Shown: one piece after another, positions 30,001 to 33,000 of the stretch
How positions within the stretch are numbered: position 1 is the stretch's first letter
Layout: each line of letters opens with the position of its first letter
Source of the DNA: Escherichia coli
GTDB taxonomy: Bacteria; Pseudomonadota; Gammaproteobacteria; Enterobacterales; Enterobacteriaceae
NCBI RefSeq assembly: GCF_003334385.1
Contig: NZ_QOWN01000040.1
Reading direction: 5' to 3' (one strand)
DNA length: 38,787 nt
Made by a program: the position numbers

Positions 30001-33000
30001 TCAGGGACAGAAATAAAGCCGGAAAGTGACTACGTGTGCACACATCTGTTTTCCGGGCTGCAGGCATCGTGTTATTTTCTGAAATGCAAAATAATAAAAA
30101 ACAAGGACACATCATGAAGGATGAAATACACAGTACCAGCATTAACCCGGATGTTGTTGAGCAGTTTCTGGCCCTTATGAATACACATTGTAAATCCTCA
30201 GAAGAGGCGCTCACCATGCTGAGTACGCTTTGTTACAACCTGATGATGACATGCGGTATCCATTCCATGGACAGCCAGATGCTCAATGGGCATGGGATAT
30301 CCATGCAACTTCAGGGGATTGATATTGCCGAAAAGCCAGGCAAGAATATTCACTAACCTGAACAGGGCCTGAAAACGCTGTCTTTTCAGGCCTCTGCAGG
30401 CAAAAACTGATGACAACAAAATTTCTGCGTTTGTACCCCACCGATGAAAAAGACAAAAACTCACACCGGGCTTCTCATCATTAAAGATAAAACCCGACGT
30501 GTCAGCCTCTACGAAACGCCAACGGCATGGTGTATCAGGGGGCAGGAGTGCTACAGCAAAAGCACTGGACGCCGCTGTGGCAGCCACGACAGTCTGAGCA
30601 GACTGCGCCTGGACAGCATTAAGCCTGTTGAATGAGTGGTGGCACCATGAAAGATAACAACACAACCGCCACCCCAGAAACCTGGAAAATGCGTTTTCTG
30701 GCCAACGGGACATCCGGCACATGGTTTTACACTGACGACATTGCAGTCACTGACGCGTGGCTTCGCGCGCACCCGGATGATGTGGAGGTTATCCCTCTCT
30801 GCCGGATACAGCCCCGCCAGCATTCCCATGAACAACATATTGAAGAACTCCGCGCAGCCCTGGCCCGGATGCTCCATATGCATCATATGATGCTGGAAAC
30901 CACACATTACCGGGAAAATATCACCGATGCCCGTTGTATCCGTGAAATGCATGAAGCGCCATTACAGGCGCTCAATATTCTGTCCAGATACCCGCATAAA
31001 AAGGACGAGGTGTGACGCATGTGGCTACTGATTTTCTGGCTTTCATCGCCCTTTAATGTCTCTTCCGGTGATGCCCGTCAGCCCACACTGGCGGTGCACA
31101 GCCAGGCCTTTCATACCGAACGGGCCTGCCGCGATGCATTGCGCGCCATTAAAAAGGAGAATGTTGGCGAATTTTCTCTGCGGGGCGTTTGTGTTTCTGA
31201 CGGAAATACGAAGGAGGAGGCTGAGAGCTCATGACGGATATTACTGACAGACATACACTTCGCCGTATGTCCTGGGCAGAGCTGAGCACTACGGCCCGGG
31301 ATGCAGAATCAAAACATGATTACGAAAGAGCCAGAATACTGTGGTCATACGCATACAGTATTGCAACAACCAGCATAAATAAAAATCTGGCCAGTGCACA
31401 TATTCGTTACTGTGACAAAAACATACACCTGATGAGTATAATCAAACTTTATTAATTATCTGTTTCTGTAAACAACATACACTCATAAAAGATAATATCT
31501 TACACAAGTAAACCAAACTGTCACAACGAAAATAACGGCCTTGCTTTATTGCATTATTCTGAAGATATCAGTATATAAGATGAGCATTCGTGGCTGGTTA
31601 ATATTTCCTCTCAGCATTCAAGACCACATCGTTCATTAATGCCTCATTTTAATGAGGCATTAATGATTACCCAGATTAGAACCTGTTTAAAACGCTGAAT
31701 CTGCCTTTCCTGTAAGTAGAGGCTCTTCCGGTAAAGTCATAATCGGGACATCATGTTCACCATTAAATACCGATACATATTCAGTGTAATTACCCTGTAA
31801 TAATGGTGAAATCAACGGCAAATTCCGTGTTTGTATTCCGGTGAGCCACTGGAAAATTTCCGGAAAGCGACGGGCACTGATATGAATATCATGGTTCTGA
31901 TGCGTTACGATATCACTGGCCATAATAACAAAGGGGACATCATACCCTGAGCGTAAACCCGGCGCGTGATGAACAGGAGTGCTGTCTGAACTGACAGACA
32001 GGCCATGATCAGAAAAGTAGACCATAGCAAAATCCTCTCCACGAGCTGTCACCATCTCATAAATATTCTGCAGAAATTTATCCAGTTTCACCAGTGTCGA
32101 TAAATAACAGGATACTTTTCGCCCAAATATTTCACGGAATGGCTCAGCATCATTAAAAAGTCTGTCACAGGGATTAGGATGTGACCCCATCATATGAACA
32201 AAAATTACTTTTGGAGAGGATGAATTAACCGCCTCCCTGACGAACTGAAGCATGTCTTCATCATCTGTCCGGCGTGATGCAAAACTTCCCTCTTTAAGAA
32301 AATATTTCTTATCTGCATTGCTGGCAACAACAGAAATCAACGTATCATGTACCCCTAAAGCCCCCTGATTTGATATCCACCATGTTTCATATCCTGCATT
32401 GCTGGCAAGCGTAACCATATTATTACCAGGATTGCCTGATTCAGCATAGTCAAGAATAAGTGTTCTGCTGAGTGAATCAATGGTATTGGCCGCAGATGAA
32501 AAATAGCCATTAATAAATATACCCGGTGCTGAATTCATCCATGGTGTTGTCGGCAACGGATACCCATAGACTGAAAGATAATCCCGCCGGACACTTTCAC
32601 CAATAACAATAATTATTGTTTTATATTTCTTTTCAACACTCACTATTTCCCATGAGCTTTTTTGATTGTTATTAAGTGTTTCATAACGAATCATTTCGGC
32701 TCTGGTTTCAGCAACGCCTGTCACCACCTCCACAGCCATACGTCTGGGCCATGCATTGACCGACAATGCAATAAAAAATAACAGAAAGAGAACGCCTTTT
32801 TTGTTTCTTTCTCGTGTACGCCAGAACCAGACAGTGAACATAACTATCATCAATGAGATAATAAAATAAATAATGGGTATACCTGCGATAAACTCTTCTG
32901 CTTCTGTTACATTAGTCTGCATTAACGATGCAATAAAGCTGCCGTTAATCTTCCCGTAGATAATACCCACCGGAGCATAAAATGCACTAAACAAAAGAAA

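Follow-up and report, generated by a model that had tools for sequence, protein, structure and literature searches.

A conserved cassette of four small genes on I-complex conjugative plasmids, ending in a divergent, predicted ANR-like protein

Introduction

The ANR (AraC negative regulator) family, represented in NCBIfam by NF033650, includes Aar of EAEC 042, Cnr of ETEC and Rnr of Citrobacter rodentium. ANR proteins bind AraC/XylS activators as well as H-NS/StpA, not DNA, and this binding alters the oligomerisation and DNA binding of the partner regulators (PMC4983702, PMC5570504). Aar in particular is reported to bind several AraC-type proteins of different families, and H-NS and StpA as well (PMC5570504, PMC4983702). 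ANR proteins lower the activity of the regulators that they bind, and an ANR gene shares its genome with, and usually lies near, the gene of an AraC/XylS activator that controls it. The family signature consists of A10, E14, A22, W26 and A29 in helices 1-2 together with W43 and R47 in helix 3, and mutation of the equivalent tryptophan of Aar, W45, abolishes activity (PMC4983702). Further ANR homologues, termed 'SF1' in E. coli and 'cluster 5' in Shigella, have been listed (PMC4038620, PMC4983702).

The DNA analysed here (the window, 38,787 nucleotides) is from the Escherichia coli contig NZ_QOWN01000040.1 (GCF_003334385.1) and carries an IncI1-type transfer region. Plasmids of the IncI1 type and their relatives are major vehicles for ESBL and other resistance genes. 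We report that the trbA-excA interval of this region, which is known to be variable in IncI1 plasmids (PMC8004404), holds a cassette of four small genes, the last of which is predicted to encode a divergent ANR-like protein.

Results

A four-gene cassette in the trbA-excA interval

The features of the locus are as follows.

30114-30356, + strand: ORF A, 80 aa, from the ORF list; adjoins ORFs B to E and is separable from them
30366-30375 and 30383-30392, + strand: hairpin past ORF A, 10-bp perfect stem with a 7-nt loop
30444-30635, + strand: ORF B, 63 aa, first cassette gene, identified by PHROG matches and dN/dS
30647-31015, + strand: ORF C, 122 aa, two-domain protein, start at 30647
31019-31234, + strand: ORF D, 71 aa, start 3 nt past the ORF C stop
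31231-31455, + strand: ORF E, 74 aa, last cassette gene, predicted ANR-like, divergent
31276, no strand: probable recombination breakpoint, inside ORF E
31633-31648 and 31651-31666, no strand: inverted repeat, two perfect 16-bp arms set 2 nt apart, lying between ORF E and the transferase gene
31687-33231, - strand: phosphoethanolamine-transferase gene, 514 aa, convergent with ORF E

Four genes, ORFs B to E (30444-31455), make up a cassette that is conserved on I-complex conjugative plasmids, with further copies in chromosomal islands of E. coli. An earlier note on this DNA had placed ORFs of 80, 122, 71 and 74 aa at 30114-31455, all of which are present on the + strand, and had described the last three as coupled. 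They are, but the note had missed ORF B, and because this gene is conserved and its stop lies 11 nt before ORF C, the coupled unit has four genes rather than three. The gap between ORFs C and D (TGA-CGC-ATG) is 3 nt, not the 4 nt it had given, while the ATGA overlap between ORFs D and E was correctly described: stop and start share these 4 nt, with GGAGGAGG upstream of the ORF E ATG. The start of ORF C at 30647 agrees with RefSeq calls and with the spacing seen in IncK. Taken together, the 11-nt and 3-nt gaps and the ATGA overlap suggest that B-C-D-E is read as a single transcript.

The B-C-D-E order was identical in all 16 cassette-bearing loci compared, which comprise plasmids and E. coli chromosomal islands (11 loci found by tblastn, namely IncI1 n=3, IncK2/Z n=1, IncI-gamma/K1 n=1, an STEC plasmid n=1 and chromosomal n=5, plus five more IncI1 contigs by gene calls). 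The A-D region occurs in 367 PLSDB plasmids, its 1141 bp are at least 99% identical in 201 plasmids, and the cassette proteins are recorded on thousands of contigs, chromosomal islands included; in some of the E. coli islands the E gene is uncalled. A count of 1824 plasmid matches was rejected as a measure of the spread of the cassette, since the pnd/sok segment of the query probably accounts for most of these matches.

Against alleles 30-50% diverged, for which synonymous divergence was ~0.8-1.9 or saturated, dN/dS was 0.07-0.36 for ORFs B to E (~0.10 for B, 0.12-0.14 for C, 0.07-0.09 for D and 0.27-0.36 for E) and 0.19-0.22 for ORF A against alleles 69-71% identical. Because purifying selection is seen in all five, these are not chance ORFs. 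The cassette is only moderately unusual; its genes are real and conserved. In database annotation, ORFs A to D appear only as 'hypothetical' (ORF B is so named in some RefSeq records), and ORF E is called 'neurotensin receptor R8' or 'FlgM' or is left uncalled. A single paper uses the name 'neurotensin receptor R8', and only in a list.

The neighbours of the cassette include excA (exclusion), the pnd/sok killer locus and a gene for a TnsA-like/sigma-domain protein with weak MzaA similarity. The convergent HTH gene belongs to the ECs1377 family, not to AraC.

ORF A and the hairpins

The 80-aa ORF A, which the note had put at the head of the operon, does lie upstream, yet it is separable: in IncK2/Z it is absent upstream of ORF B, and in pSTEC2018_166-c four other genes lie between the two. 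ORF A is thus a conserved neighbour and not a fixed part of the B-C-D-E unit. Its product is acidic (pI 5.3) and gave no family match in NCBIfam, PHROGs, PADLOC, Pfam or PDB.

Both predicted secondary structures proposed for the locus were recovered. The hairpin assigned to ORF A is a 10-bp perfect stem at 30366-30392 that folds at -19.9 kcal/mol (z = -2.8), and the perfect 16-bp palindrome at 31633-31666, which lies between ORF E and the convergent transferase gene and has a 2-nt spacer, folds at -21.2 kcal/mol whichever strand is taken, with z -9.2 on one and -7.5 on the other. Neither was called in a terminator scan, and no T-run follows either one. A promoter scan of the locus gave no more matches than shuffled sequence, and an alignment of three plasmid types contained no conserved promoter upstream of ORF B.

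ORFs B, C and D have uncharacterised relatives

Profile searches, which had been proposed for each ORF, were informative for some of them. A Pfam scan of ORFs A to E returned no family even at E<=10; NCBIfam gave the ANR family for ORF E, and PHROGs gave matches for ORFs B, D and E. A PDB sequence search with all five yielded nothing meaningful, a PADLOC scan produced a single match at E 0.019, and no toxin, antitoxin or defence family was found for any of them in NCBIfam, PADLOC or Pfam. A word-index homologue search with ORF E, ORF B and Aar as queries returned close relatives only.

The ORF B product is basic (pI 9.95) and has three conserved cysteines. It matched four PHROG families, all of unknown function (best phrog_1226, E 7e-17), and relatives with 41-51% identity are found in Stx-converting and other enterobacterial phages. 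ORF D, with a hydrophobic N-terminus and two conserved cysteines, matched phrog_3766 (E 2.5e-11), and a 41% identical ORF is present in two Klebsiella phages.

For ORF C, the AF2 model (pLDDT 71, pTM 0.35) predicts an N-terminal beta-beta-alpha-beta unit followed by a C-terminal helical hairpin. Searches of this model against PDB and AFDB50 returned its own family and insignificant matches only, so no function can be proposed. The C-terminal ~50 residues are common to ~20 clusters of small unannotated proteins, and relatives of this domain matched no named NCBIfam family and only PHROGs of unknown function. Downstream of a distant ORF C homologue, no D- or E-like ORFs were found and no D or E gene is called. 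At one locus, an ORF C homologue lies 2-4 kb from three PerC genes.

ORF E resembles ANR proteins in sequence and predicted fold

ORF E encodes a protein of 8720 Da (8.7 kDa; pI 9.25), under 10 kDa as in the ANR family. Its match to NF033650 (ANR_neg_reg) spans 49 of the 54 model positions, with E 1e-7 and a score of 31.7 bits, just under the curated cutoff of 32 bits; when the protein is read from Met13, the score is 32.4 bits. For five ORF E relatives from other plasmids or assemblies, NF033650 was the sole significant family (22.2-28.6 bits), and Aar, used as a control, scored 65.7 bits. In PHROGs, ORF E matched phrog_2227, while tblastn with ORF E found nothing in a phage genome collection.

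The AF2 model of ORF E (pLDDT 86.6, pTM 0.73) has helices at 15-27, 31-44 and 48-73, and Foldseek matches at ranks 11-50 in AFDB50 were nearly all named 'ANR family transcriptional regulator' (TM 0.66-0.83). Gapless alignment with Aar pairs A22 with A14, E26 with E18, A34 with A26, W38 with W30, A41 with A33 and C61 with C53, such that every helix 1-2 residue of the ANR signature, and the conserved cysteine as well, is present at exact spacing. Within the E family A34, W38, A41 and C61 are invariant and E26 is not. In helix 3, by the same gapless alignment, the positions of the ANR residues W43 and R47 are taken by Leu53 and His57, and the E family has an invariant motif of its own, NKNLAxAxIxxC, with Leu53 within its N-K-N-L-A. 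An hhalign comparison of the E family with a six-sequence ANR alignment gave a probability of 5.7%, over helices 1-2 only; with two alignments this shallow, we do not regard the value as informative.

By sequence and predicted fold, ORF E is ANR-like, a probable divergent and distant member of the ANR superfamily. Of the PerC/ANR-like character that the note had attributed to the 74-aa protein, the ANR half therefore stands (NF033650, AF2, Foldseek) and the PerC half falls, given that Pfam gave no match at E<=10. NZ_AP022817, a related IncI1 plasmid of complete sequence, has no annotated AraC/XylS gene, so the genetic partnership that defines ANR is missing, though a partner may be encoded by the host. 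Some database copies of ORF E are truncated or frameshifted, so the gene may be dispensable in places.

A probable recombination breakpoint within ORF E

Upstream of position 31276, 1131 of 1131 bases together with the first 45 nt of ORF E match the common IncI1 backbone. Downstream of it, the sequence has ~25% mismatches through a diverged E allele and then enters an AT-rich block, with GC content dropping from ~0.52 to 0.32-0.38. The common E allele is 83 aa long; the 74-aa allele adjoins the transferase gene in all six places read, and DUF2569 is also there in five. Our best guess is that the E allele of the window came in by recombination at 31276 along with the AT-rich transferase block.

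Discussion

As a tentative account, plausible though a little short of probable, we propose that this I-complex cassette ends in an ANR-like protein that acts on host regulators. ORFs B to E would be transcribed together, and ORF E would bind partners supplied by the host, the likeliest being silencers of the H-NS family or AraC-type regulators already resident there; the host is invoked because no AraC-type gene is annotated on the related plasmid. This binding would tune either the host's handling of plasmid DNA or the plasmid's effect on host gene expression. The partners and the physiological role of ORF E are what we infer in this account, and ORFs B, C and D enter it as small proteins with uncharacterised relatives, those of B and D including phage proteins. 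Among the roles that the note had suggested, toxin-antitoxin and anti-defence functions found no matching families, and only the regulatory one has positive evidence, all of it from ORF E.

The cassette could instead consist of phage-type 'morons' engaged in mobile-element conflict, excluding phages or rival plasmids or inhibiting host defence, with the ANR-like fold of ORF E binding a different target. We consider this unlikely, though it would suit the relatives of ORF B in Stx-converting and other phages, those of ORF D in Klebsiella phages and phrog_3766, the match of ORF E to phrog_2227, and the position beside excA, the pnd killer locus and the TnsA-like/sigma-domain gene with its weak MzaA similarity. 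However, PADLOC gave no defence family beyond the one match at E 0.019, the matching PHROG families are all of unknown function, and tblastn with ORF E came back empty in the phage genome collection. Moreover, ssb, psiB and ardA mark the leading region of IncI1 plasmids, where known plasmid anti-defence genes cluster, and the cassette adjoins trbA rather than these genes, which were seen on a related plasmid.

Distinctly unlikely, in our judgement, is that B-C-D-E constitutes a previously unrecognised four-protein module of I-complex plasmids and pathogenicity islands, in which an orphan ANR-like E and three small partners, whose relatives are phage-borne or otherwise uncharacterised, would, on entry into a new cell, reprogram host silencing (H-NS/StpA/Hha) or block a host or phage factor. 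If true, such a module would represent a new kind of interface between plasmid and host, set apart from the AraC-linked virulence circuit for which ANR proteins were first described.

Small overlapping genes on a plasmid, beside the pnd/sok killer system, might suggest a toxin-antitoxin system or another addiction module of that sort. We hold this to be highly unlikely, as NCBIfam, PADLOC and Pfam returned neither a toxin nor an antitoxin family for ORFs A to E, and toxin-antitoxin genes normally travel in pairs, whereas there are four genes here and one ORF C homologue has no called D or E gene beside it. B- and D-like genes also occur in phage genomes, and the cassette is stable in chromosomal islands, some of which have no called E gene. 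It is hardly credible that the ORFs are decaying remnants without current function, an outcome that the note had named as one that would undo its reading: they are mostly annotated as hypothetical, with ORF E often uncalled or present in databases as frameshifted or truncated copies, but this reading is largely refuted by selection and synteny, with dN/dS well below 1 for all five genes, tight spacing and gene order kept across plasmid groups, and the 1141-bp A-D stretch and its proteins as widespread as described above.

To return to the account that we favour, if ORF E acts as Aar does on H-NS or AraC-type proteins, a common resistance plasmid could alter the virulence, acid-resistance or silencing programmes of its host, and the ANR family would no longer be confined to the AraC-linked virulence loci from which it was defined. 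At minimum, the database names of the E family need correction.

Comparison with known systems

In common with ANR proteins, ORF E is under 10 kDa, has three predicted helices, keeps a conserved C-terminal cysteine and carries A-x3-E-x7-A-x3-W-x2-A across helices 1-2. Leaving aside its own family, the closest predicted structures are almost all those of ANR proteins, and ANR is the one protein family that it matched with a significant E-value. It differs in lacking Trp43 and Arg47 of helix 3, where it has its own motif, in a 12-residue N-terminal extension and in closing a four-gene cassette, whereas canonical plasmid ANR genes adjoin genes for AraC-family regulators, one of them beside fimbrial genes. 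PerC/Pch proteins (PF06069) are likewise small helical regulators of mobile elements and have an A..E..A..W motif with similar spacing; unlike them, ORF E has no Pfam PerC match even at E<=10. H-NS modulators (Hha/YmoA on pESBL, H-NST and T7 gp5.5) are small mobile-element proteins that bind H-NS, not DNA, Hha being an H-NS co-regulator. No sequence relationship between these and ORF E was found, and the parallel lies only in position and proposed mechanism: the excA-trbA interval of pESBL contains hha/ymoA, which is annotated there as a putative regulator and was placed among the genes required to maintain the plasmid (PMC4288162), and Aar has been compared with H-NST and gp5.5 (PMC5570504).

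A four-gene cassette in the trbA-traY interval

The window comes from a conjugative plasmid of the IncI1 type: by megablast, positions 27000-38787 match IncI1 plasmids that keep traY, excA, nuc and trbA in the order seen here. Annotated relatives carry, in order, traW-traX-traY-excA, a gene for a 528-aa protein with TnsA-N and sigma domains, pnd, small ORFs, a convergent HTH gene, nuc, dqlB and trbA. The trbA-traY interval is a very variable region of IncI1 plasmids (PMC8004404), and in pESBL it holds different genes, including hha/ymoA (PMC4288162). The features considered here are:

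29632-29784, minus strand: pndA, 50 aa, Hok/Gef-family PndA
29782-29938: sok-type antisense RNA of pndA (Rfam RF01794, 125.6 bits)
30114-30356, plus strand: ORF A, 80 aa
30366-30392: inverted repeat after A
30444-30635, plus strand: ORF B, 63 aa
30647-31015, plus strand: ORF C, 122 aa
31019-31234, plus strand: ORF D, 71 aa
31231-31455, plus strand: ORF E, 74 aa
31633-31666: inverted repeat between E and the transferase gene
31687-33231, minus strand: phosphoethanolamine transferase, AT-rich block
33428-33892, minus strand: DUF2569 membrane protein, AT-rich block

The pnd/sok-type type I killer locus (29632-29938, minus strand) is complete and lies directly upstream of A, in divergent orientation. 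The 528-aa protein encoded between excA and pnd (27908-29494, plus strand) has both a sigma-70 region-4 segment and the N-terminal domain of a TnsA endonuclease; it weakly resembles MzaA, which serves the MZA anti-phage system as its sigma factor (E 1.7e-6, far below the cutoff), and the RefSeq label is only "TnsA endonuclease N-terminal domain-containing protein". Between nuc and trbA is a type I toxin ORF of the dqlB (DinQ-like) type (about 36300-36395, minus strand); related plasmids have it in this position too, in two copies.

The four ORFs described in the earlier note (80, 122, 71 and 74 aa) are present in the ORF list, and the ATGA overlap of D and E was confirmed in the sequence. The gap between C and D, given there as 4 nt, is 3 nt, and the proposed three-gene coupled unit was mis-drawn, as ORF B, 11 nt upstream of C, had been overlooked. 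Using local tblastn among 19 compared loci, we found B, C, D and E adjoining and in the same order in all 11 cassette-bearing loci (three IncI1, one IncK2/Z, one IncI-gamma/K1, one STEC plasmid and five E. coli chromosomal loci), and gene calls on five further IncI1 contigs give the same order. In the chromosome, the block is flanked by a TonB-dependent receptor gene on one side and lactate-utilisation genes on the other. A does not always accompany the unit: an autotransporter gene takes its place upstream of B in IncK2/Z, and transferase, DUF2569, HTH and nuc genes separate A from B in pSTEC2018_166-c. The A-D stretch was found in 367 PLSDB plasmids (201 at ≥99% identity); a query including pnd/sok gave 1824 plasmid matches, most of them probably due to the pnd/sok part. 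On the best-supported reading, mobile elements share B-C-D-E as a conserved cassette of four genes, and its last gene encodes an "orphan", divergent ANR-like protein, ANR being the AraC negative regulator family.

The two inverted repeats have no mismatches, and their predicted folding is far stronger than that of shuffled sequence; no T-run was found at either hairpin, and neither was called by the terminator scan.

Coding status and the products of A, B, C and D

The window was compared with diverged alleles from IncK2/Z (L003), the STEC plasmid (L014) and two IncI1 plasmids (L001, L002) by the Nei-Gojobori method. The dN/dS values were 0.19-0.22 for A, 0.10 for B, 0.12-0.14 for C, 0.07-0.09 for D and 0.27-0.36 for E. 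With synonymous divergence of about 0.8-1.9 or saturated, these low ratios indicate that all five ORFs are protein-coding and constrained.

The suggestion that such small coupled genes form toxin-antitoxin or anti-defence modules found no support, as none of A-E matched a toxin, antitoxin or defence family in NCBIfam or PADLOC. B is basic, has three conserved Cys residues and matches four PHROG families of unknown function; enterobacterial phages, Stx-converting ones among them, encode relatives of it at 41-51% identity. The N-terminus of D is hydrophobic; the protein has two conserved Cys residues and matches phrog_3766 and an ORF in two Klebsiella phages. For A, no relatives were detected beyond its own family. 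Few proteins are related to C over its full length. The C-terminal ~50 residues of C (window 30830-31000; consensus ALxRMxxMHxLMMxKxNHGASFYDAxCLREMNEAPxQA) recur in ~20 clusters of small proteins (P0147-P0164) with varied or unrelated N-termini; this helical domain matches no named family in Pfam or NCBIfam and so may deserve its own. In its AF2 model, C forms a small beta-beta-alpha-beta domain and then a helical hairpin; this model had no informative structural neighbours.

The only diverged full-length C homologue (56% identity) shares its contig with genes for type III secretion export, and three PerC-family genes lie 2-4 kb away, along with ProQ/FinO, SSB and phage antiterminator Q genes (region as a whole: L012/L013, 6001-6375 and 8782-10468).

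Recombination within E

The window and the common IncI1 backbone agree at every base from 30100 up to and including the 45th nt of E. Sharp divergence begins at 31276, from which point E has only 71% protein identity to the common 83-aa allele, and GC content falls to 0.29-0.45 across the transferase and DUF2569 genes downstream. The identity break together with the AT-rich block indicates that homologous exchange with a related I-complex plasmid replaced the 3´ part of E and added the transferase block. The 74-aa allele, listed in 661 blocks of the assembly collection, adjoins the transferase in 6/6 places read, five of which also have a called DUF2569 gene. In the search of complete genomes and plasmids, pJKHS006_1 was found to have this E allele with the transferase block, and a single further plasmid, NZ_AP042565, had the block at a lower identity of 94%. 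The transferase falls far short of the cutoffs for CptA and EptA and for all MCR families; relatives of it at 78% nt identity occur on I-complex plasmids, including STEC ones.

Where the arrangement is the common IncI1 one, the 83-aa E ORF shares ~50 nt (L002, 7332-7583 and 7533-8156) with the 3´ end of the convergent HTH gene, an ECs1377-family gene with a winged-helix domain, an overlap that could give rise to antisense interference. It is absent from the window, having been removed by the transferase insertion.

E as a divergent ANR relative

The earlier note had read E as PerC/ANR-like; the ANR part held and the PerC part did not, as no Pfam profile, PerC included, matched E. The only family matched was NCBIfam NF033650 (ANR_neg_reg; E 1e-7, 31.7 bits, model positions 3-51 of 54), for which the curated cutoff is 32 bits. 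Started at Met13, the window allele scored 32.4 bits, while five E relatives from other plasmids or assemblies matched only this family at significant E-values (22-29 bits); the control, Aar of EAEC 042, scored 65.7 bits. A gapless alignment of E with Aar pairs A22/A14, E26/E18, A34/A26, W38/W30, A41/A33 and C61/C53, such that E keeps five of the seven published ANR signature residues (PMC4983702) and the conserved Cys. The AlphaFold model, built from eight family members, has three helices (pLDDT 86.6, pTM 0.73). When AFDB50 was searched with Foldseek, E's own family, named "Neurotensin receptor R8" or "FlgM", took the first ten places, and ranks 11-50 were nearly all "ANR family transcriptional regulator" from many genera (TM-scores 0.66-0.83). 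Profile-profile comparison of the E family with a shallow six-sequence ANR alignment gave a weak match. We conclude that E is a true but divergent ANR relative. It misses the curated boundary narrowly, and this probably explains the lack of a RefSeq annotation in the IncI1 records examined. The family may already be among the E. coli/Shigella ANR homologues of the 2014 and 2016 surveys, which lowers any claim to novelty.

GenBank and UniProt name the E family (window 31231-31455; P0016-P0020, P0031, UniProt O87514) "neurotensin receptor R8", and the IncK/STEC alleles are labelled "flagellar biosynthesis protein FlgM"; both are clearly propagated annotation errors. Chromosomal islands with the cassette also contain, ~6 kb upstream and on the other strand, a second and partial sequence resembling E, 64% identical over residues 21-62 (minus strand; L004 1873-1998, L006 1867-1992, L008 1868-1993, L009 1867-1992).

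Canonical ANR genes lie near AraC/XylS activator genes (PMC4038620), as we observed in two plasmid examples; on pAA, aar is ~4.4 kb from aggR. No AraC-family gene was found anywhere in the annotation of one complete cassette-bearing IncI1 plasmid. If E works like an ANR protein, its partners would thus be encoded by the host or by co-resident elements. Such partners are plausible since Aar binds H-NS, StpA and several heterologous AraC-type proteins (PMC5570504, PMC4983702), and by homology the E product probably acts through binding to host regulators.

E differs from known ANR proteins in helix 3, where the signature residues W43 and R47 are replaced by Leu53 and His57. Mutation of the corresponding Trp abolished the activity of Aar (PMC4983702). 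Within the E family, helix 3 carries a distinct invariant motif, NKNLAxAxIxxC.
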